From assembly GCF_002105155.1 (NCBI RefSeq), contig NW_019028981.1:1364001-1428000 (forward strand): a stretch of DNA of 64,000 nucleotides, given 5' to 3'. The notes under the pieces were generated by a model that was not told the DNA's origin, searched no databases, and saw only the letters and a program-made list of their open reading frames with translations. Position numbers and translations under genes: made by a program. Positions 4,274 through 53,589 of this stretch are shown here, one piece after another (positions within the stretch are counted from its first letter, which is position 1; every line of letters begins with the position of its first letter). Origin of the DNA: Lobosporangium transversale (Eukaryota).

Positions 4274-6432
4274 ATGACGCAGCATCAATACCAGCAATTC
4301 CGAAAGGACGGCATTATTGAACACGTTTGTGTTAGAATTGTCTCCACTTCTGCAAGCAATGGTGGCCCATCCTGCTATGTGACCTTGCAAGATATTCGAG
4401 ACGTGTTTCCAAACGCACAACGATTCAAGCTAGACGGACTTCCTATCCCGTTCCTTGTAGACTCTAGTGGCAGCAGGTATATATTGATTATGGCACGCCT
4501 TATCAACTTCAAGTATCTCTGGAAGGAAAAAGAAATGAAGGAATTCAATTTGGAATATATCTTCTTAGAATCGAACCGCTGCGCATTGCGTTCTATCCTT
4601 ACAAGGTTCTGGATGTAATTGCAGAAGAACCACAGCTCAGTAACGCTAACAGCGGTAGCACTGCTGGCATTTGTTTGCCCACATCGGGGAGGTCGGCAAA
4701 TCTCGACAGACTTACTACTCTTCAAAAGCATACTCATGCTATCCTCATCCAGAATTTAGAGCTTCATGATTGTACAATCCCTCGACTATTCATAATGTTG
4801 CCTGTCGACCACACCAATTGGGACCCGTTGAACATCCTGAAGAACAAGCTCCGCCTTCATTTTCTATGCGAATGTGGGGGCTATACTGCAAACACGAGCG
4901 AGAGCAGCCAGAACCAAATCCATATTGCCAAGCACGACGGATATGAAGTCCGAAACAGCATAGAGTTCTTTCGCAAATATGGGAAACGCATGCTCATCCT
5001 CTTACAATGGCTTAAAGTAGCAATACCCTCATCTGCTTCCCTGGCACCGGTCCCACATCTGGTCGATGCCGGCATTGATTATTCAATTGACTATATAGAG
5101 GCGCTCTCTAAGGAGAATCTGACCTTGAACAACATCAACAAAATCGATGACTATGAACCACTTGAAGGAGCCGATCCACAACAACTACTCTCATTCCTCC
5201 GAACCAACGATGAGGATGAGCGACTTGGCAACTTGTACAAGATCATGACCGAAACAGGCCGTGTTAAATGGATTTGTGTCGACCACTATCGTTTGGCATA
5301 TAAAGAAGAGGAACAAAAGGCATTTGAAGGTGTAGTGGGGGAGAATAGAGGCAACTATGACTTACACCTTGGTAAAGTGATGATCATATTGAGATCCAAA
5401 GTCAGAGCTGAGGAATTTTTTACTGCCCTGGCGAATGTAAGACATGTTTACGAGCTGGATATCACATTCGACTGGGATTGGACCGTGAATGAGCTTGAAG
5501 CATTCGAGAGTGCTTTGAAAGTGTCAAGCATATCGGTTCTTCGGCTTGATATTGGTCGGTTTCAAAAAAGTATCAATGGGGAAGTGCTTTCAACGTCTAG
5601 GCAATATGACGCACTTGTTCGTATCATAAAACTCAACAATATGAAAACGATTCATATTACTCTATCGCCGGATCTCATAAAACTCCCCAGCCTACGACCC
5701 AAACAATCGTCACAACTTCATAAGTTATCCTTTGGGATGAGTTTTCGATCGATTGGAGCCAGTGAATTACTATTAATTGTAAATTCACTAAAGAAGAACA
5801 TGGCTTTAACCACACTGGCCTTGAACGACAATTCAATTCGGAATGAAGGAGCTCTAGCACTGTCAGAAGCGCTCAAAAATAATACAGTTTTGACTACTTT
5901 GGACCTGAGTAACAACTCAATTGATGAATATGGGGCTGCGGCATTATCAGAGGCACTCAAGACCAACACAATGTTGACTACTTTGAATTTATGTGGCAGC
6001 CTAATTGGAGATGCAGGAGCTCAGGCACTCTCAGAGGCGCTTAAAGTTAACACCACTTTGACTACTTTGGACTTGAGTGACATCAATAATTTCGCGTCAT
6101 GGATTTTCAGAATTGAGGACCGAGGAACCTTAGCACTGTCAGAGGCACTCAAGGTCAACACGGCTCTGACCACCTTGAGATTGAGGGGCAACTTTATTGG
6201 AAATGAAGGGGCTCTTGCATTATCAGAAGCACTCAAGATTAACAAGACTTTGGCCACCTTGGACTTGGAGAGAACCTTGGTTGGGGAGGAAGGAGCTCTG
6301 GCATTATTAGAGGCGCTCAAGATTAACACTACTTTAACCACTTTGGAAGTAGATAGAGAGAAAATCGGGGCTAGAAGAGCTTCGGCATTATCAGAGGCAC
6401 TCGAGGCTAACGCAGCATTGACTTTTTATTGA
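4274..6432 (+). CDS. RNI-like leucine-rich-repeat protein of an expanded Mortierellaceae-type family (~688 aa), 2 exons
   Basis: Exon 4274-4476 splices (GT-AG) to 4569, giving RIEPLRIAFYP in frame with ORF 4675-6432. Central IPRLFIMLP..LHFLCECG..HDGY domain; about eight 28-aa repeats ALSEALKxNTTLTTLxL..N.IG.EGA. Confidence 0.85.
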
Positions 6433-6779: not shown

Positions 6780-7047
6780 GTGATCTCTATCCATGGGAAC
6801 GGGAAGCTGTCAAGACAGTGTATCCAAAGGGCTCTGGATTTCCATCACTTCAGCTCAGATGGTCCTGAGAAATAGTAGGGGAAGTATTGCGCCAAAGGTG
6901 TCGGGGTCGATCCATGATAGTCGCTAGTGGAGCCAGAGCGTACTTCGCTCATCAATTGGCAGCAAGGATCTTACTCTACATTAAGGCCAATGGCTTGTGG
7001 AATCGACTGAAGGAGTGTTTCTAGCGTGGTGTGCCGCCAGAGGTATT

Positions 7048-7079
<32 letters not shown>

Positions 7080-7461
7080 AATTGAGCCCAATGAAACTTG
7101 ATTGCTCCTCGCAGGGATCGCTACGTGCATGGCAAATCAGCAAGCAGGGTCTGCAGGAGATACTGTGGCACTTACGCGCTCCATAAGCGACCACTCTAAG
7201 AGAACGACACTGAGGAACCCATTGACAAGGTGCAAGACAATGAGTTTGACCGCTATTTCCGGGTTTCCACGAAAAAACAAGATGGTTGGCCTCCTGGATC
7301 GGTGCAAAGCAGTCCTTCACTATACGCAAGCATGTCAACACTATTCCAGCAACCTCAGTCGCTTCCGAGCAGATGCTTAGCATATACTGTAATGTGGTCT
7401 TAACAAGAGGATAAGGCTTTCCACCCTTGTGCTCTGCAGCTATGCTATGATGAATCCTTGA
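6780..7461 (+). pseudogene. hAT transposase remnant (C-terminal dimerisation domain)
   Basis: Frameshifted fragments NEFDRYF (7239), IPATSVASEQMLS (7343-7381) and KRIRLS match the hATC pattern E.DRY..IPATS..SER.FS....R.RL. Multiple stops. Confidence 0.7.
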
Positions 7462-7504
7462 TTACAAGCAATAAAAATAATGTCAGGGTCTGGCACCTGA
7501 GGAG

Positions 7505-8220
7505 ATGGGAAATAGGATGGAGCAATGGTTTCGTCTCCTCGCATTGAGTTGCCTTTGGTATGTGCTTCCATAAACCCCAAAGCCGAGATGTCTTTTTATG
7601 TGATCGTAAGTTGCTCCTTGTTTATTATATCCTACAATTGTCACATCTTCTTTAAGTGGCTCGGGAGTACTGTTACTACATTTGGATAGAGAGGATGTAA
7701 TTTCTACTCTTACCGCAGCACGAACGGCCGTCTCCCGAAGAAAAAAAGTTGACGCATAAATGTCGTGAGGAGCCCCATTCAAAAGCCGCTGATCATGCTC
7801 AAACCCTCCTGGATGCCTTACAAGAACGGTTTGAAAAAAAGCTCAGAGTACAAAAGCGCCATTTTGTCAACATTAGCAAGAAGATAAATACTGCCTTCCA
7901 CTGGGAAACGGATTCTCGCTGGCTTTGCTAAGTACATGAGATCTAAAAATTGAAACGTTCAAGAATTCAAGAATGCCCTTATGAAGCTACTTTGCAATTA
8001 CTAGTGACTGTTTCCCTGGCGACATTATTGTATCGGCAGACAGCGACATGCTAGCATATAACGATATAATGACCAGCTGGCGGCCCATGTTTAGGTATAA
8101 AGGCTATATCTATCACGTCCCGACCATGTGAGGCCACTTGGGCATCTCAAGGGAACAGTTGACCGCGCTGTGAATTGTCTCGAAAAAAACTACAATTATA
8201 ACATCGCACAAATGGGGTTC
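7505..8220 (+). pseudogene. XPG/FEN1-like PIN (5' flap-type) nuclease domain remnant
   Basis: NG..EEKKLTH..R (DG..P.EK-like motif), ECPYEA(D)FAI at 7971, DIIVSADSDMLAY (DSD at 8039-8047) and an H3TH-like LGISREQLTAL*IVSK(ND)YNYNIAQMG. Disrupted by stops and frameshifts; the 5' boundary is uncertain. Confidence 0.75.
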
Positions 8221-8246
8221 ACCGCCTTCGGGGATGTCAACCAAAA

Positions 8247-8545
8247 AACATCAAGATTTTGGGCCTTAACTTCGGTCAAGCGTGTATAATTGGTGCCGGT
8301 GCTTTGTTGCCAAGTCATGGGAGCGCCAATGGCACAGCCACACAACCCAAGTTCTATAATCTGACTATCAAGCAAAAGGCGGTGTATCGCCAATCGTTTA
8401 CTCAAGATAGTGAATGGTCCAGTTGAGGCAAAAAGAAAAGAGGCCGACAAGGCTGTGGTTGCTGTAGGTCTGGGAAAGTTTTCTTCCAATACCAGGCTTT
8501 CTTCCTTACATGAGCCGCTCCAATTTTACTTCATTCAAATAGTAA

Positions 8546-8580
<35 letters not shown>

Positions 8581-8956
8581 GTTTTCTTACCTTATAGCCG
8601 ATATTAATACATCGACACTTCTTCTAGGCCAAATCCCTTGGATAGTGGGAGCGAATATTATACTTTTAAGAAGCGCCCGCCCGAGCTGCGAAGAATTTGT
8701 AGGACAAGTTGATATTCACCGGCTCTATTGTTCCAAGTGCAAGGCTTTTATGCACAGGGTTGTGATGACTAGCCACAACATAGCTAACGTCGTCCGCGGT
8801 CATCTAATACACCAGCAGCGACCCCTCTACCTTGAGCTGATAGACAAGGATAGAGCATATCCATGAATGAAAGACCATTGCTCAGTGTACGCCAAACGTC
8901 AAGCACCCTTCAAGGCTGAGGAGGAATCAAGGAGCCGTAAGAAAATCCACTTATAG
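8247..8956 (+). pseudogene. Fanzor/TnpB-like RuvC + zinc-finger nuclease remnant with a spliceosomal intron
   Basis: RuvC-I IKILGL(N)FGQ (8250-8279); VAVGLGKF..RLSSLHE..YFIQI | intron 8542-8627 (GTAAGT..TTCTAG) | AKSLG..VG..EYYTxKK(R)PSC (RuvC-II Glu at 8653); CSKC (8729-8740); MHR(V)VMTSHN (RuvC-III). A basic tail ends at TAG 8954-8956. Confidence 0.8.
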
Positions 8957-9060
8957 TTCTTAAATTAGTGAGTCTAAAAAATATGCGTATTAGCAAATAC
9001 GTTTAGACTAGGTCACAGTCACGCCTATGACGTATTTAAGAGAGGTTTGTGCTGTACTTC
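8957..9060 (+). ncRNA. Candidate omegaRNA scaffold (nested stem-loops) immediately 3' of the Fanzor-like ORF
   Basis: Exact complementary arms TCTTAAAT 8958-8965/9034-9041, AGTCTAAA 8971-8978/9002-9009, CGTATT 8986-8991/8996-9001 and GTCA 9018-9021/9028-9031. The position fits TnpB/Fanzor guide loci. Confidence 0.45.
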
Positions 9061-9084
9061 GCCAGCTAACTCGGTTTATTATTA

Positions 9085-10483
9085 TTACAGGAGGGTGTCT
9101 ACATTCATAGATGTATCGTTATCATCAACAGGAATAGGGGTGCCTACTTCAGACCTTGGCGGTAGTGTAGGCGAAGGTTGGTAGCCTATTCTAGGTGTCC
9201 CCGCTGGTGTAATACCTAAAGAGTCTGTTGAGTGAGTACGGTGGAGACCCATCCTGAAGGAACCTTCTTCTCCCGATTGTCCTATCGTCCCATTGGTAAG
9301 TGTATTCGTCGGTCCTAAAGCAGGACTTTGTGATCCAATGCTGCTATTACTGCCCTTGCCTGATCCACCCAAGGACAATGAGTGCTGCATTTCATTCACA
9401 ATAACAGATATCGTTGAGGCGGGTCTGGGTGTAGTTGTACCTCTAGTAGTGGCTCCATCACCCGCACCATTGCTGTGAGCACCATTACCACCTCCATCAC
9501 CTTCTACGTCCGCTGTGACATCTAAGCTTCCTTCTTCAGCATGTGCAAAACCATCCTCCTGTTGGTCCTCCTCCTCATCATCCTCCGGATGTGTCCTCTT
9601 CAAATAAAGTCTCCTCTGTTCTTCCTGTTGATCCTCTTCGATCGAATCATGAATATTCTGAAGACATGAAAATGCATCATAGAACTGTTTCTTCCTCAAC
9701 TCCATAACAAGCCCCTGTCGAACAGCTTCATCTTCTAACTCTTGGATCTCGGATTGTAGAGTAGCAATGCTCTCCTGATTAGATTGTCGACTAGGAAAGC
9801 GTGAAACCTCGGTCGCTAACTGATCATAGAGGATTTTGTTGGCACGTTCTTGCTTGGCTTCCTCAAGCTCTCTCGTCAAGACTTCGAGTTCTTTTTCTGA
9901 TCGTGCAATATTTTCTTCTGTCCGTTGTTGTGATTGTTCATAACTGAGTCGTTCCCGTTCTGCCATCTCTGCTACAAGCTGTGTCTTGGAGATTGAGAGC
10001 TCAAAGTAGGTTACTTCATGCAATAAACTCTGAAGTTCCCTTTCACTGTTTTTATAAAAGAAAAAAAAAAAAAAAGGTTTTTTTTGAGATTACGATGATA
10101 ATACAGAGCGAGTATGGTTGCAAAAGAACGTGTCTTTCTTTTATTTTTTTATTTTTGCTTCTTTACAATCAACATTATTACATTCTCTTACATGTCTTCA
10201 TTTGTACCAACAGACAAAGCTTGACACCATTTATGAAAGCGAGTTGTTAATATCCTAAGAGGCCTCTCATTGACGTTCAATCGCGCCCTGATTATATCTT
10301 TTCCATATATCAGCCAACAGTGAAGTAGGATTGTAAAAATAATGAATAATTGTACAGATCAGCCTATTGCCATTATACCGATATTTTTATCCATGAACAT
10401 GTCTCCCTTAAAGTGTATTTCGAAAGTGGAGGAAAAAATAATACACTAAAGATGGATGGACAAAACCTACCTTCGTGGTCCAT
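9085..10483 (-). CDS. THOC7: THO complex subunit 7 (Thoc7/Mft1 family), 3 exons
   Basis: Exon 1 MDHE (10483-10471), exon 2 DIIRARLNVNERPLRILTTRF, then a coiled-coil ORF with AKQERANKILYDQLA..PSR and LRKKQF. Confidence 0.85.
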
Positions 10484-13690: not shown

Positions 13691-14000
13691 CATGCTCTAG
13701 TCATCATCAGAGTATTCATGTCTATCAGTTCTTTCATTGAGTTGATGTCCATGTTCAAAGTGGTGTTGATCTTGAGCGCTTCTAGCAGTGCAAGGGCACC
13801 TTCATTCCCGATTGAGTTGTACATCAAGTTCAAAGTAGTTAAAGTCGTATTAGACTTGAGCGCCTCTGACAGTTAGTTCCATAGCCCCTTCATCACCAAT
13901 TCGGTTACTTCCCAAGTCCACATTGGTTAAAGTTGTGTTGATCGCGAGTGCTTGGATATTCGTGAAGCTCAAAATTTTGAGCGAGGATAGTATGAGCATG
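13691..14000 (-). pseudogene. Frameshifted LRR gene fragment paralogous to 4274-6432
   Basis: Minus strand reads ALAINTTLTNVDLGSNRIGDEGAMEL, then a frameshift near 13873, then LSEALKSNTTLTTLNLMYNSIGNEGALALLEALKINTTL. Confidence 0.8.
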
Positions 14001-14627
14001 CTTTTGAAGGATAGCAAGTCTGTCGAGGGCTTGATCTTGCATTTTACTATCCTTCGCCTTGGACTAAAACTGCAGTTGAACCATCATGAGAACTGGATCT
14101 GGCCTGCCCTTGAGTTGATGAAATCTAAATGGGTAAATTTGCCCGTTCTACGATCCAAGAGGTATTTTATAGATCCGCAATACTTTGCTTTTTTTAAGCG
14201 GAAGTCGCGTATTGCTCGTATCGCAAAGGGGCCCGATCTCTTTCACACGTCTATCATTTCGCTATTATTCTGTCTAGTCAATTCAGTAGTTGCCTCTCTC
14301 TCTCTATTCTTTTTCTTTTCTTCTCTTCAGTTCTCTCTACCTCTAGTTGTCGTAGCAAAGATGGTGAGAGATCATCAACCGGGGGTAATAGCAGGCGGCG
14401 CTAGAATAATATCGCATAAATACATTACTTTATTGATAGGATACAAACATTCTGAATATACTGTATATATAACTTTCTCTCAACTGGGCTATCTCTCACC
14501 GTGGCTTCTGCAGCATCCATATCAAGTCCAAAAGCTTTCCTATCCTTTCCGTACTGTGAGATAGTTGCCTTTTCTGACACGAAAGCACTAGACTTTAAAA
14601 CCAATGTCAAGTTACAAAAGTTTACTT

Positions 14628-46150: not shown

Positions 46151-46241
46151 CACATATGGACCATGGCTACGAGGATAATGATCTGGAAGTGCTACAAAGG
46201 ACGCACTATCCTCATTATCAGAGTAGCCATGGGACATATGT
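46151..46241. repeat. DIRS internal complementary region (ICR)
   Basis: 46151-46178 is the reverse complement of the left terminus 42253-42280. The remainder is the reverse complement of the right terminus up to 46428. Confidence 0.95.
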
Positions 46242-46850
46242 CCCTCCCACACCTCCCTTTTCTTTTCACTCGTTACTAGATAGAGAGTAGATCAGAGCGA
46301 ACGCTAGATTTTATTTATTTTATTTTTAGTTTTTTCTCGGTCAGAAGGAATAAAAAGAGGTCACACATATGTCCCATGGCTACTCTGATAATGAGGATAG
46401 TGCGTCCTTTGTAGCACTTCCAGATCATAACGTTGGCGATATACAATTAAAGGATATCTGTGGTGTAAGGGCCAACTGTAATCCGGTAAATGCATTGTCA
46501 ATCTTGCAAGTACATTGGAAGCTTAAAATTGCTCGCGCCGACGTGTAATATCTACTGATGGTACTGCCTACTCCACCCTGCAATACATGTTGAGTATTTT
46601 AGTAGCTCAGTATTACAATACTTTAGTATAAACTAGTCGATACAGCACCCTTATTTCCGTCCGCTTGCGAAATATTGTAGTGCTAAACTCTCACAGGTTT
46701 AGCGCAGTCCATGGAACAAGTAGATCTTTTGTGGCCGCGAGCGGACCCATAAGATGTTATCTTCATGGATACTATAATAAACGAGGAATAGATTGTGGTA
46801 GTTAATGACACTTTTATTACAGAGATGGGTTAATAATTCAAAATGGGTAT

Positions 46851-48918
46851 CTATTTACACTCGAGTGGCTCATCCAATATATTAAGAGCAATCCCTTGTG
46901 CACGATCACTATGGCCATCAGTCCCGGCATAGTTATCGCTATTTCTTCCTTTCTTCCTCTTGGTGATCCATGCAAACAGTCGATTTACAATCCTCTCAGG
47001 TAACGCGACCAAAGCTAATGTAATGACTGTAAGAGCGCAACAGATGTAGGCCCAAAGGTCTCCTACTACCTGGTACATAGTCCATACTGGCTCGGGAAGG
47101 TCAGTAAAAACGGTTGCACTATAACTTAAACTGTTTAAGATTGGTGCGCTGCCAATCACCAATGGGTTATAGTAACTTGAGGCTATAGCGCCACGTCCGC
47201 CACATGAAAGGATGGTGATGCCTTGTTCCATAGCCCTGAATGCTTGAATAGCAGTCCCTAGCCGTATATTACCTTGATAAAGCAAAAAACAAAAAATAAA
47301 AAAATAAAAAATAAAAAAAAAAGAGAGAGAGAGAAATAAAGGTCAATCCACTGAAAGTTTGATTCGTCATTACACATCTAAATGTTTAGCACTTCTTGCT
47401 CTCTCTCTCTCTTTCTTCCTCTCTACGCCAACTTACCTTTACTAGCGGTCAAGCTGATCAATAAATTGATATTTTGTTGCTTAATACTCTTTGAAAACGT
47501 GTGGAAATTTAAATCAAATTCAGTTGCTCCTCCAATCAACCCAGAATTGAGTGAAAGCTCTCTTCCTGTTGCAGGTTGATTACTAGGCCCTGGCAAAATA
47601 TTGTTCTCGGCCCTAGGCTTCGGATGAGCCTTTTGATACTCAAATCCGACATTGCCGGCCTTGTCAAACATCACAAACATACTCTTGCCCTTAGTGTTGG
47701 TTGGAGCATCCACAAAATCCTCATAAGCGATACCGATGTATTTTGCGTATGTCGCAGAGATATTCCTTGCTTGTGTCCACAACTTATCCCGCTCTGTTAA
47801 AGTGCTAATGCGCATCATTTTCTCACTCCAAATCACTATATCAGAGTTAACTTTCGCTAAATTAGTTGTTTCGTTGAGTCGATAAGAGTATTCGTCTTCG
47901 AAAGAACTGTCAGAACCCCACGGTAGACCCGACAGACAAACAACCCGCGCGCTAGAGTGACTGAAATCGAGGATTCCTTTGACCTGAAAGGATCCATACA
48001 ACAAGACAATCATCATCATAAACAGGTATATAGACATCGGTGAAAAGGCTCCTGACCGGGCCTCCCCAGCTTGTTTCCGCATGTTGGCTTCAATAGGGTC
48101 CACATCATAGACACCGCCTTTTTTGTAATAACGTGTACGCATAAAGTGGGTGAAGCCGCGAGCGAGCATCACTGAGGTCCAGACCTTTTTGTTGAAAGAA
48201 GTGAAAAGGAAAGAAAAAAAAAAAGCATGCCAGCAAGGTCGGTATGAAAGCAATTAGACCCTGCGGCTCAAAGCCTTCAACATATATATACATACAAATC
48301 ACTCACCATGATAAACTCAAGTCCTCCAATACCAGCAACGGCCACCCATCGTACAAAGGGCTGGTTGTCAAGCTGGGAATAAGCAATAGATCCCACAGTC
48401 CCTAATGGACTAACAGCATATACCACTGTGAAAAGGGCCACCCACACAGTCGGCAAGACCATAGTTGCCACCAAAGCTCTCACTCCATTTTGAAATGCCT
48501 CATCCGGTTTCATAAACCTTTCTTGCCAGCTCAAATGGATCCAAAGGGCTACCAACTGAACAACTGAGAGACTGAACCCCAATAGCATCGATGAACCCAG
48601 ATCACTGTCTCCATTCTCTCCTATAGGGGTTTGGTAGGCAAGTCCTTTTCCGAGAGCCATACAGAGAAATAGATAAAGATTTGGGATGATTGCAGCTTGC
48701 GACCATATAGATGAAGGTAATGTAGATGACGAGGATGGTCCTCCAGGCCCTAACCTCTCTAAATAGCAGAGAGACATGAAAATGGCAAGGAAAGGTGCTG
48801 GCACAATATTGTGGAGCCCAGGGCCGAAATAGTCACAGATGCTGACCAAGATAGGAACCAAAACCGCAGTTATGGTTGGGATGGAGAAGAGCGCCTCTTT
48901 CCCTTCCTCCTCTGCCAT
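46851..48918 (-). CDS. Apolipoprotein N-acyltransferase (Lnt)/CN-hydrolase-like multi-TM protein, copy A, 3 exons
   Basis: TM region with SPLGTVGSIAYSQLDN..GIGGLEF; nitrilase-fold motifs VIWSE, YQKAH.KP, GGATEFDLNF, FRAMEQG; C-terminal TMYQVVGD + TM. Confidence 0.75.
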
Positions 48919-50048
48919 TGCCTTTATGTGTTGGCGATGTGAGAAATGGAAAGATATAAGAAGAGGAGAGAAAGAAAATAAGAAGAGGAAAGGGAAGGAG
49001 GAGAGGAGGGAAGTAGAGAATGAGTAGAGGGTGAATATAGTAGTGCGAATGAAGATGGAAATAAAAAAAAATTACATGATTTTTATAATCTTTGCCACCG
49101 CTACAGCCCAACCTTTGCTGAGAGCCCATCGGACATTCCGAGGAAGAGTTTTGATTTCAAAAAGATCTTCATTCTCACGATTAAGGTTGCCAGGATTATC
49201 CAACAGCCCACGATGAGCAATTTTCTTGGGATCTTTAAAGTTTTAGACAGGCACATGCAGGAAAAAAAAAAGAAAATAAAGGAACCCATTTGAATTTTGT
49301 TGAACATTTCTTATTGGAGAAAAAAATAAAATGTATTTACCCTGCTGGTTGAGTTGTTATGAAAGTGGTTCAACCGATGTTTGTAAATATATACCAGTTG
49401 ATTTGTATATGGAGGTTTGAATTGCCCCGTTTTAATTCTCGAAAACAAGGTAAAGGCAGATGATACATGCCCATGCATAACCGATCGCCTTGTAGTATGA
49501 TCTCACTAAAAGTCAACAATCGCAAATATCTCTGTGCGTGAGCCACAGCTTGATTCCTGGTATTCATAAAAAGGGCCCTATGTTGGCAATAGGCTTCGTT
49601 GTGGCTAGGCCACCATCATTAAGCATTGATCTAATACTCGAAGCGAAGTATTAGTCCCAGGTGGCCTTTGAGGCTTGAAAATAAAAAATAAAAAAGAAAA
49701 TTTTTTTTTTTTTCACCGAGTGTTATTTTGTAGAAAAATTCATTGTTAGCCTCTCATGGGGATAGTGGTAACTTCAATAACGTTAATCTTCCATCCTACA
49801 TTTGAACAATGTTCATGTGATATAAGGGTGCAGCAATAATCCCAGAATCAACTCTTGGCACCAGTTTCGCTCAAGCCTAATTTCCCCATAGGGGCCTCTC
49901 ATCCTAGCAAGGAAAAATTGAATCGCTTAGTGTCAGTGTCATGAAGGGCCTTGATATTGTTGATTCTGACAAAAGCAATTAAACATTCGCAAATAATCTC
50001 TGTCTATACTCGCAAGTACATTGGAAGCTTGAATTTGCTTGGTGAAGG

Positions 50049-50082
<34 letters not shown>

Positions 50083-50430
50083 CTTCTGCACCAAGGCTCA
50101 ATATCTACTGATGATAAATGCTGACTCCCAAACCTATAGTGCCAATATTTATATATTAGTATTTTACCACTTTAGTGTAAACTAGTCGATGCAGCACGCT
50201 TAATTCTCCTTTAATTTTGTCCGCCTCCCAATTATTGAACCTTAGTTCTAGTGCTAAACTCCCACAGGTGGGTTTGATGCACTCCATGGAAACAAGAAAG
50301 TCTTTTTTGATCGCGAGTAAAACTATGGGAGGCTATCTTTATGAAAACTACAATAAACGAGAAATATATTACGGTATATAGTTAATGGTACTTTTATTAC
50401 AGGATTGAATTAATAATTCAATATGGGTAT

Positions 50431-52779
50431 CTATTTACACTCGAGTGGCTCATCCAATATATTAAGAGGAACCTCTTGGGCACGATCACTATAGCCATCA
50501 GCCTCGACATAGTCATCACTATTTCTTCCTTTCTTCCTCTTGGTGATCCATGCAAACAGTCGATTTACAATCCTCTCAGGCAATACAAGCAAAGCTAATG
50601 TAATGACTGTAAGAGCGCAACAGATGTAGGCCCAAAGGTCCCCTACTACCTGGTACATAGTCCAGACTTTGTCATGTACTTCAATGTTAACAGTGTTTGA
50701 ATTACGAGAGGATGTTTCACTTCCAACTATCATTGGATTATAGTAATTTGAGGCTATGGAGCGAAGTGCGCCGCATGAAAAGATAGTGATGCCTTGCTCC
50801 ATAGCTCTGAATGCTTGCACAGCAGCCTCTTGACGTACGAAACTAGCTTTATAAGGCAAAAGGAGAGGAAAGAAGGTCAATCCATTGAAAGCTTTAGTTT
50901 CGTCATTCCATATCTAAATATTTAGTACACTCGAATTTTGATTATCCGAACGATTTGCCATAGAAAACGTTCGGATAAAAATTAGGTTTTATTGAATTGA
51001 GCTGTATTCTAAATTTTACAAAATATATATGTTCAGGTGACCCTGCACTTATATGTTCCCTAAATGCACGGCATTCGTTCGGCCATTCGTTCGGATGTGC
51101 AGTTAGGGGACCTATAAGTGCAAGGTCACCTGAACATTTCTATATATTTTGTAAAATTTAGAATACAGCTCAATTCAATAAAACCTAATTTTTATCCGAA
51201 CGTTTTCTATAGCAAATCGTTCGGATAATCAAAGTTCGAGTGTACTTGTTGCTCTTTCTCTCCCTATTTCTGCCTGCGTCAAACTTACTAGTAGACCTGC
51301 TCAAGCTGATCAATAAATTGATATTTTTCTGCTTAATTCCCTTTGAGAATGTCTGGAAATTTAAATCAAATTCAGTTGCTCCTCCAATAACCCCAAGGCT
51401 GAAAGAGGATGCTTTTCTTTCTGCTGCGGGCTGATTACTAGGCCCTGGCAAAAAATCGTTATCGATCCTAGGCTTTAGATGAGCTTTTTGGTACTCAAAT
51501 GCAACATTGCCGTTCCCGCTATACATCACAAATATACTCTTGCCCTTATTATTGCCTGTGCTATTATCAAAATCCTCATAAGCGATACCAACATATGTCT
51601 TGTACGTCATAGAGACATTCTTTGCTTGTGCCCATAAGTCGTTCCGCTCTTGTGAAGACGTAATACGTATCGCTTTCTCACTCCAGACCACTACATTAGA
51701 TCCATCTTTCGCCATCTCAACTGTTCGGTTGAACTGGTAACTTTGAATATCGGAAGGAAATCCATATGGAATTTGTGCTGACATATCACTTGTTGTCGAC
51801 AGACAAGAAATCCGTCTGGGAGAATAATTCAATCTATACTTCCCATTGGCCTGAATGGATCCATACAACAAGACAATCATCATCATAAACAGGTATATAG
51901 GCATCGGTGCAAATACTCCTGACCGGGCCTCTCCAGCTTGTCTCCGCATGTTGGCTTCAATAGGGTCCACATCATAGACACCGCCTTTTTTGTAATAATG
52001 TGTGCGCATCAAGTGGGTGAAACCGCGACCAATCATTACTGAAGTCCAGACCTTTTGTTAAAAGAAGTGAAAAGGAAAGAAAAAAAAAAAAGCATGCCAG
52101 CAAGGTCGGTATGAAAGCAATTAGACCCTGCGGCTCAAAGCCTTCAACATATATATACATACAAATCACTCACCATGATAAACTCAAGTCCTCCAATACC
52201 AGCAACGGCCACCCATCGTACAAAGGGCTGGTTGTCAAGCTGGGAATAAGCAATAGATCCCACAGTCCCTAATGGACTAACAGCATATACCACTGTGAAA
52301 AGGGCCACCCACACAGTCGGCAAGACCATAGTTGCCACCAAAGCTCTCACTCCATTTTGAAATGCCTCATCCGGTTTCATAAACCTTTCTTGCCAGCTCA
52401 AATGGATCCAAAGGGCTACCAACTGAACAACTGAGAGACTGAACCCCAATAGCATCGATGAACCCAGATCACTGTCTCCATTCTCTCCTATAGGGGTTTG
52501 GTAGGCAAGTCCTTTTCCGAGAGCCATACAGAGAAATAGATAGAGATTTCGAAGGATTGCAGCTCGTGACCATATAGATGAAGATAATGTGGATAATGGG
52601 GATGGTCCTCCAGGCCCTAACCTCTCTAAATAGCAGAGAGACATGAAAATGGCAAGGAAAGGTGCTGGCACAATATTGTGGAGCCCAGGGCCAAAGTAGT
52701 CACAAACGCCGACCAGAATGGGGACCCAGAATCCGACTAAGCTTGGAGAGAAGAGTATTTTTCTCTTTTCTTCTGCCAT
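50431..52779 (-). CDS. Lnt/CN-hydrolase-like multi-TM protein, copy B, 3 exons
   Basis: Same exon structure and motifs as copy A; intron 2 is enlarged by a MITE. Confidence 0.75.
50928..51242. mobile_element. 315-bp MITE with long near-perfect TIRs and TA target-site duplication (Tc1/mariner-pogo-like)
   Basis: TA|CACTCGAATTTTGATTATCCGAACG...CGTTCGGATAATCAAAGTTCGAGTG|TA. The arms are complementary over ~140 bp, and the insertion is absent from the paralogous intron at ~47385-47400. Confidence 0.92.
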
Positions 52780-53589
52780 TGCCTTTATGTGTTGACGATG
52801 TGAGAAATGGGATGATATAGGAAGAACTGAGGAAGAAAATAAGAAGAGGAAAGGAAAGGGTTGGAGGAAGGGAAAGAAAGATAGGAGAGAAGGTAGAGGG
52901 CGAATAAAGAGCTAACAAAATTGCATAAATGAAGATAAGAATAAAAATCAATTCAGGACATGATATAATCTTTGCCACCGCTACAGCCCAACCTTTGCTG
53001 AGAGCCCAACGGACATTCCGAGGAGGAAAATTGATTTTAAAGAATATACAAAAAGATCTTCACTCCCATGATTAAGGCTGGCAGTTTTATATTGTTGGTA
53101 TCCAATACCTTGGTATCTTTATAGACAAGCACATGCGGACAAAGAAAAGAAAAAAAGAGGAGCCAGTTGAATTTTGTCCGACAGTGTTTGTAAATATCGG
53201 GCCTTTTTTTCTTTTCTTTTCTTTTTAGAGCAAAAAAAGTCCATTTTCTGTACATGTACAAAATGCTTTTTTAGGTTAAGGGGGAATGGAAATAAACAAA
53301 AAACACAAAGATAACAGCTTGCTTTATTCCGATTACCCACCACAATACTTTAAACAATGGCTTTGATACAAAAAAAAAAAAAAAAGAGTTGATAGATCCA
53401 AAGATTTTATTGGCAGTACATGTACTCAGGGATAAAAAAAAAAAAAAAGTAACAAAGCCTTGAAGGTATGATGAATGGCTGATACAATTCATCACAATAT
53501 AAATACAAAAATAAAAAAAAAAATAAAAATAAATAAACTTGAAAAAGTGGTCATCTTCAGAAACAGTATCTAATGTCTATCGTTAATGT

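Follow-up and report, generated by a model that had tools for sequence, protein, structure and literature searches.

The window analysed in this work, a stretch of 64,000 nucleotides of the Lobosporangium transversale genome, contains, between an LRR gene (4468-6432) on one side and a convergent THOC7 gene on the other, a series of remnants on the + strand. An earlier note had read them as a hAT transposase, an XPG/FEN1-like nuclease, a Fanzor RuvC domain and a candidate omegaRNA, and a six-frame reading recovered all four parts in that order. No domain of the family or of its carrier element was detected by Pfam at E<=1 in the open reading frames of the window, and motif, Pfam and profile searches rendered no assignable feature between 6780 and 7200. 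A frameshifted scrap of a hAT C-terminal dimerisation domain lies at 7200..7460, its outer limits being set by eye from the six-frame reading and its identity resting on Atlas, Pfam and motif matches. The remnant of a 5' nuclease of the EXO1/FEN1/XPG fold (N-terminal domain with the helical arch, the acidic motifs and the start of the helix-turn-helix) follows at 7722..8185, as located by the family profile and by tblastn with intact relatives; it corresponds to profile positions 82-231 (E 5.5e-13 and 1.7e-19), has lost its first ~80 residues, and is interrupted by frameshifts and stops. The junction of an internal deletion of ~640 codons, which removed the remaining 5' nuclease, the linker and the Fanzor REC and WED domains, is found at 8185..8214, where the match jumps from profile position 231 to 872 (residues 230 to 865 of P0009, an intact relative). 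Profile and tblastn also place the RuvC-I segment of a Fanzor1 with its following helices at 8211..8541, with the catalytic D replaced by N (8268-8270) and another deletion near 8390, which took out about 70-80 codons (profile positions about 970-1037). A spliceosomal intron with GT..AG borders (8542..8627) occupies a family-wide position, the acceptor position being common to all 47 occurrences in related loci. The last exon (8628..8956) retains the RuvC-II glutamate (8653-8655), a broken C4 zinc finger, RuvC-III with V for D, premature stops and the native stop (8954-8956). The tail at 8957..9060, a degraded right end with a candidate omegaRNA scaffold according to a covariance model, an alignment and covariation in relatives, comprises an intact stem-loop 1 (8972-9008), a conserved TGACGT (9028-9033) and a 27-bp terminal repeat (9034-9060), and position 9060 is the right end of the element.

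When compared with a profile of 30 full-length members (1217 positions), the window matches positions 82-231 and 872-1195, and has no counterpart for positions 1-81, 232-871 (~640 residues including the Fanzor REC and WED) and about 970-1037. Because 640 intervening positions have been deleted, 'PIN' and 'RuvC' adjoin in the window as a product of deletion; the earlier note was right in linking the two, but they are two ends of a single fused gene rather than two modules. With three deletions, frameshifts and the loss of two of the three RuvC acids, the window gene (7722-8956) is a pseudogene of the fused-protein family, in which neither an intact RuvC triad nor REC/WED nor an open frame is preserved. 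Contigs from other studies are identical to the window over the lesion stretches (X4 contigs at 7219-8512 and 8595-10200, and X2 and X4 contigs at 8600-9250, all with 0 differences), so that the lesions are not assembly errors; at the last-exon lesions, paralogous contigs of this organism have a sequence other than that of the window. The three peptides previously reconstructed from this DNA contain residues that it does not encode: the D read after EA needs an absent base (frameshift near 7990), the RuvC-I and RuvC-III positions encode the N mentioned above and V (8759-8761), and at the first zinc-finger cysteine the frame is disrupted by an insertion of 4 nt near 8674. The window copy itself serves as a mere signpost to its intact relatives.

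A 61-residue C-terminal fragment of the window gene retrieved five relatives among six candidates, and a profile built from those five identified 110 proteins, 407-2000 aa long; those with a named source are all from Mortierellaceae. In intact Mortierellaceae relatives, one protein of 1150-1350 residues comprises a complete 5' nuclease of the EXO1/FEN1 fold and a full Fanzor1. The long relatives cover both 7722-8185 of the window, with their own residues ~80-235, and 8211-8953, with their last 300-350 residues. Pfam analysis of 39 long relatives out of the 110 rendered PF07282 in 36 and an N-terminal XPG_I at E<=0.05 in 19, three of these at or above the cut-off. Of ten further long representatives, nine were from Mortierellaceae and one was a metagenome protein; P0240, a metagenome protein, spans the nuclease and the Fanzor parts. 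A metagenome scan produced 64 related loci, in 21 of which the 5' nuclease, the middle and the RuvC part appear in the same order, and dozens of genomes have the two halves in colinear order, joined by a conserved linker. A search among viral contigs gave 100 pattern matches, none of which was a relative of the family. As judged from these sequences, the 5' nuclease and the Fanzor are linked as one polypeptide in which both active sites are conserved, which bears out the earlier proposal of an XPG/FEN1-like nuclease linked to a Fanzor.

Comparison of the family profile with solved structures matched the N-terminus to Rad2 (E 9.5e-12), FEN1, XPG and EXO1, and the C-terminus to TnpB-like proteins. 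All fold comparisons were based on an AlphaFold model of P0009 (1186 aa, pLDDT 83.6), whose first five Foldseek matches were Fanzor1 structures (E 8e-12 for SpuFz), the next ones being EXO1 and FEN1. In this predicted model, residues 2-296 superimpose on human EXO1 with Z 23.0 and rmsd 2.7 over 271 aligned positions, FEN1 being tied within 1, and residues 445-1122 superimpose on the Parasitella Fanzor (PpFz) with Z 18.4 and rmsd 4.0 over 488 positions. The best structural matches of the N-domain are DNA-bound EXO1 and FEN1, and the subfamily signals of this domain conflict, since structure favours EXO1 and FEN1, which are tied, and sequence favours Rad2. According to the modelling, intact relatives possess a PIN-type core with a helical arch and a helix-turn-helix, together with the REC-WED-RuvC-TNB fold of Fz1, in agreement with the earlier assignment of the C-terminal module to the Fanzor RuvC fold.

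Active sites were scored in 64 proteins with a length of 900 aa or more, among which 20 cover all scored sites. The seven acids of the 5' nuclease are kept in 18 of these 20, the RuvC D-E-D in 19, and both in 18, and the catalytic D of RuvC-I is invariant in the 61 long relatives that cover it. The basic residues of the arch (K85 in 40/42, R92 in 39/42) and the N-terminal glycine (G2 in 22/24) are also largely maintained; active-site acids, an N-terminal glycine and two arch basic residues are features of EXO1/FEN1/XPG nucleases. R92, D173 and D225 are named in the PDB titles of matched structures. Since both sites are conserved at about 40-50% identity to P0009, the sequences point to selection on both predicted activities. 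The Fanzor1 motif described in the available part of PMC3627910, D-X(125-275)-[TS][TS]-XX-C4 zinc finger-X(5-50)-RD, is found in intact relatives (D877, C1070/1073/1087/1090 and R1096-D1097 in P0009). The relatives have the same D-E-D triad as Fanzor1 and also its rearranged RuvC-II glutamate, located six residues before the zinc finger (a Fanzor1 feature in the accessible text of PMC13565253), which corresponds to E1063 ahead of C1070 in P0009 and is an E in 49 of 54 relatives.

Downstream of the stop codon, relatives present a stem-loop with six pairs, an arm that varies, a TGACGT that is almost invariant and the 27-bp terminal inverted repeat (TIR), with the scaffold beginning within ~30 nt of the stop. 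A covariance model built with the window left out (R1) has its best match in the window at 8970-9059 (rough E 4.9e-5), its next-best match leaving no further standalone RNA copy below E 0.36 in the 64 kb, and Rfam gave no match on 8800-9200. RNAalifold on 21 sequences recovered the first stem, with two-sided changes in three of its six pairs. Compensatory cells numbered 15 against 6.8 in shuffles, with 0/500 shuffles as high, in a count that does not control for kinship; two pair-count measures were not above shuffles (191 and 177 of 500). Pairing of the TIR with the upstream arm of its own element is stronger than with other arms (-18.8 vs -13.4 kcal/mol; 0/20000 permutations, n=25), own-arm pairing being ranked first in only 8 of the 25 and 14th or worse in 5. 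Four out of five intact tails fold well in comparison with shuffles (z -2.3 to -7.0; L017, z -1.1), and their second stem closes at the element end. In the window tail the 5' arm of stem 2 is ~22 nt too short and folding is no better than in shuffles (z -0.57, -0.52, -1.61), so that its folding energy (z about -0.5) was dropped as evidence. As to the nested hairpin described after the stop in the earlier note, only its inner part is kept among relatives; the outer hairpin was discarded because its pairing is not conserved. On the basis of covariation and of the R1 match, the 3' tail is a structured RNA, conserved among relatives, whose end coincides with that of the element, in line with the 3' guide-RNA region proposed earlier, and it is likely to be the guide scaffold of the fused nuclease. 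In three families of relatives the RNA tail has a predicted intron, at a position common to them; such tail introns are predicted in L020, L040 and L054.

The carrier of the intact copies is, to judge by their sequences, a TIR transposon of the Mutator (MULE) type. Two families with near-identical copies (99.2-100%) at different flanks define elements ~5.56 and ~7.46 kb long, both ending in 27-bp TIRs, and TIR matches of 18/18 or 17/18 were found in L002, L004, L006, L017 and L034-L036. A MULE transposase gene lies on the opposite strand, head to head (divergent) with the fused gene. Its PF10551 matches, to single exon fragments, are below the Pfam cut-off (E 6e-4 and 1e-3), and its SWIM finger reaches E 9e-7 and is above the cut-off in L002, L017 and L024; a DDE transposase with a C-x-x-H motif and a SWIM finger could be recognised in intact relatives, the motifs being identified by eye. 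Upstream MULE homology was detected in 15 of the 64 loci, representing about 7 families, and hAT homology in none. Since 10 loci with at least 900 nt of upstream sequence lack a MULE (L007, L008, L028, L030, L031, L046, L049, L062, L063 and L064), many copies are non-autonomous or ride otherwise. No MULE transposase (best E 0.078, elsewhere in the window) and no left TIR were found in the 64 kb, the best inverted match to the right end being 15/22. The element of the window has lost its left half, and we infer its transposase from its right end and from its relatives.

No target-site duplication was seen in paired flanks, and in at least one case the metagenome flanks are chimeric (the right flank, but not the left, is common to L002 and L004); tandem elements in L006 and L035 are separated by spacers of 8-9 bp, which hint at a duplication of 8-10 bp. 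Because no duplication could be paired, the boundary of the flank-derived guide is a presumed one. A pyrimidine-rich right flank was seen in 21 of 28 cases (p 0.006), but insertion only in promoters was rejected, since among the Pfam-named right-flank genes two start after the end of the element and three converge on it, and in the window THOC7 converges on the element end. Guide-directed insertion was likewise rejected, as no left-flank 14-mer was equal, by eye, to a right flank. In a post hoc comparison, an ACG[T/C] core was observed 13-14 bp outside the left end in 6/9 left flanks vs 0/26 right flanks.

The C-terminal two thirds of the family have the predicted fold of Fanzor1 as represented by SpuFz1, GtFz1 and PpFz1 (PDB 8GKH, 9CER, 9CEU and 9CF0; available parts of PMC10432273 and PMC11423790), from which the window copy differs in being dead. 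In SpuFz1 and PpFz1, SL1 and SL2 precede the guide (PMC11423790, available part), and relatives likewise have a first stem-loop followed by a putative second stem that contains the TIR. Most Fz1 proteins are, however, of 600-700 aa, according to the same part of that paper, whereas the relatives have 1150-1350 aa with the complete N-terminal 5' nuclease. This N-domain has the whole catalytic core of EXO1/FEN1/XPG (Rad2) enzymes, including the seven acidic and the arch basic residues, but at ~16% identity, and it is transposon-encoded and fused to a predicted RNA-guided nuclease. Fanzor1 proteins had already been associated with hAT or MuDR elements (accessible parts of PMC10530073, PMC10711439 and PMC3627910). 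[quoted passage not shown] Members of the family appear among the Mortierellaceae FZ1 rows of Supplementary Table 1 of PMC10432273, published in 2023 (KAG0016911.1, 'Rad2 nuclease', and KAF9543057.1, in the Fz1 branch). That source, in its available part, lists them as Fz1 only, with no loci, RNA or transposase; its main text gives 0 matches for 'fusion', 'fused' or 'Mortierell' and does not mention a PIN domain. Nor is a fusion mentioned in the accessible parts of PMC10691335 and PMC5751038 or in two supplements of PMC10530073 (0 matches). The proteins were therefore already known as Fz1 members, and in these available parts the fusion, the carrier and the RNA were not found described; full-text searches of the literature showed no description of a nuclease-Fanzor fusion, and Repbase, subscription papers and some supplements, which lie beyond that coverage, may hold one.

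Two readings of the locus differ from the one that we favour in the anatomy itself. The scrap is probably genuine: it has a hAT motif at 7343-7372, 28 of 30 Atlas neighbours of 7250-7411 belong to PF05699 (score 0.93), and a PF05699-type match at 7319-7411 is below the Pfam cut-off (E 0.16); homology searches rendered one candidate and no sequence homologue, and no PDB match was found. Its position 260 nt upstream, on the same strand, and the report of hAT as the commonest Fanzor neighbour (PMC10530073, available part) would fit a nuclease-Fanzor module carried, solely in this lineage, by a hAT transposon. This we regard as very improbable, given that no hAT motif or scrap match was found in the 64 loci (many with short flanks, and one motif being used), that the right end of the window is of the MULE-family type, and that, in runs from the same organism, many divergent contigs cover the Fanzor part but 7140-7601 is covered, at 80% identity, only by the contig of the locus itself. 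Moreover, inverted ends around the scrap are unclear (best 12/14), the single match of the window upstream region to the 64 loci (E 0.18) lies outside the motif, no hAT part was matched in 115 relative proteins, and in none of the 64 loci do a hAT gene and its ends enclose the nuclease-Fanzor module, the enclosing ends and transposase being MULE-type. The scrap is probably a neighbouring relic outside the element. Of the three-way association of PIN, RuvC and hAT expected in intact homologues, the PIN-RuvC link and the Fanzor fold have stood, but the link with hAT has not, and a hAT transposase is not supported as part of an element whose intact copies carry an opposite-strand MULE and matching TIRs. 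That unrelated relics have piled up by chance, or that gene models have merged two genes, might be suggested by the fragmentary window copy and by the fact that most long proteins are predicted gene models; it is nevertheless highly improbable in view of the colinearity and conserved linker, the common order in 21 loci and the extent of P0240. Chance pile-up is refuted for the nuclease-Fanzor-RNA link, and holds for the hAT scrap only. The explanation that we favour, with a probability of roughly 0.6 for the whole including the working cycle outlined below, is that the stretch represents a dead copy, with three deletions, of a Mutator-type (MULE) transposon of Mortierellaceae, whose cargo gene encoded a 5' nuclease of the EXO1/FEN1 fold fused N-terminally to a Fanzor1 and was followed by a structured RNA at the right end, the hAT scrap being likely unrelated. 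The anatomical part of this explanation, taken separately, is very probable.

How such an element could benefit from the fusion can be outlined as follows. The MULE transposase would excise the element, often precisely; an RNA read through the right end would carry the flank as a guide, with which the Fanzor would cut the empty donor site; the tethered 5' nuclease would then trim 5' overhangs or flaps and resect the ends to 3' tails; and homologous repair from the sister chromatid or another nucleus would copy the element back. Cutting of excised alleles by OMEGA nucleases, driving restorative homing, has been proposed (available part of PMC13565253), and Muta1, which is excised via flank hairpins, is over 90% precise in yeast (accessible part of PMC5499845). 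Precise excision would recreate an empty-site sequence matching a flank-derived guide. Given the anatomy, the chances that trimming and resection of the guided break are the role of the fused domain seem to us about even. The more inclusive statement, according to which Mutator elements of Mortierellaceae would encode a single-chain 'cut-and-resect' RNA-guided enzyme that commits the break at the vacated site to homologous repair, would insert at a fixed distance of 13-14 bp from a CRE-like ACGT dyad and would in some families splice the guide RNA, is tentative and falls slightly short of even odds. RNA guidance, TAM and activity are, for this family, predictions from sequence, and as Fanzors that have no such domain are functional in vitro, it is not evident why one should be needed.

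With the same anatomy, the 5' nuclease could instead serve transposition, by opening the flank hairpins of MULE excision or trimming insertion flaps, the Fanzor merely bringing it to the donor site. The flank hairpins left by MULE excision are not opened by the transposase (PMC5499845, available part), other accessory nucleases are carried by DNA transposons (PMC3627910, available part), and the fold and active site of the N-domain would suit a structure-specific nuclease of this kind. Such a role is nonetheless unlikely, as the domain is fused to the Fanzor and not to the transposase, and remains intact in copies of families L002-L006, L028 and L046 that have a truncated MULE gene or none. 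It could also be that the 5' nuclease acts on RNA, either trimming the 5' end of the omegaRNA from its own transcript or freeing the enzyme by degrading the guide within the RNA-DNA hybrid. The scaffold starts within ~30 nt of the stop and has to be cut from the mRNA, and enzymes of the EXO1/FEN1 type are able to act on RNA-DNA hybrids, which counts in favour of this possibility; but mature RNAs are obtained from Fanzors without such a domain (PMC10432273, available part) and the closest structures are the DNA-bound ones, which makes an action on RNA quite unlikely.

What Fanzors do for their own transposons is, according to the available part of PMC10432273, still open. The fusion has been kept across dozens of species, in recently moved elements that have a transposase, ends and a scaffold, so that the homing hypothesis becomes directly testable in a eukaryote; the two active sites can be disrupted separately. 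Genome engineers make fusions with exonucleases in order to favour deletions or homologous repair and, if the N-terminal domain does resect, the fused proteins of Mortierellaceae would be a natural counterpart of those engineered enzymes.

An ACG[T/C] core ending 13-14 bp outside the left end of the element was found in six of nine left flanks and in none of the 26 right flanks, usually in the context GTGACG. The related metagenome loci that carry it are L002 (305), L004 (304), L017 (129), L034 (170), L035 (218) and L036 (210), and the left flank of L024 (~99) also agrees with this spacing if the end of the element is moved one base inward. Against a background of about 1.3%, the binomial probability is 3e-10, a figure to be read with the fact that both motif and distance were picked post hoc, after inspection of the data. 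At L034, a single motif is flanked on both sides by two different elements, head to head. The hexamer of the left-flank motif also occurs within the right end, 27 bp from the terminus, where it hardly varies, and the TGACGT-containing segment there is tandemly duplicated in L012 (2380-2460) and L055 (950-1010).

The left-flank motif likely reflects a preference for certain target sites that is imposed by a DNA-binding protein acting as a dimer, either a host bZIP factor or the transposase. It may also be the case that the motif is a distant TAM. Elements of different families were found in tandem or beside each other's ends, with spacers of 8-9 bp (L006:1-486, L035:7630-9146, L034:1-170 and L036:1-210), the left end of the adjoining element being missing to an extent that differs from case to case.

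In the long-tail families, a canonical 5' splice site is predicted in the RNA tail, the region 3' of the stop codon of the fused gene. Such a donor was detected in all four long-gap families and in L046 (starting at 9546), versus one of 20 short tails (L038). In L020 (1981-2082), L040 (2436-2531) and L054 (1489-1583), it lies exactly 31 nt from stem-loop 1. The predicted acceptor directly follows TGACGT, so that splicing, if it occurs as predicted, would render a compact second stem closing at the end of the element. The tail of L042 has no fitting acceptor for its donor (1640), and the window tail lacks the donor/acceptor arrangement of the long-tail families.

The right end of the window element lies 25 bp from the stop of THOC7 (9085-10089, - strand). 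At 4468-6432 (+ strand) lies a leucine-rich-repeat gene that belongs to a multicopy family, with a second fragment of that family at 13755-14027. Region 46178-53177 contains two duplications, of 2 kb (82% identical) and 0.7 kb (77% identical), as well as two long, possibly MITE-like palindromes (46178-46428 and 50924-51246).

Comparison with window positions 8645-8968 indicates that the same organism holds several additional, more divergent copies: seven of the eight records listed from contig set X1 are paralogous pieces, with 9-38 differences. In set X5, a 2487-nt contig shares only a 42-nt piece (8892-8933).

The family profile is fitted at E<=1e-30 by 921 cluster representatives. XPG-type motifs were also recognized, by eye, at the start of more divergent long Fz1 proteins, namely those of Podila epigama (1273 aa) and Linnemannia hyalina (1786 aa), examples taken from rows 1271 and 1302 of Supplementary Table 1 of PMC10432273, and the metagenome protein P0240; the fusion therefore appears to comprise several subfamilies.
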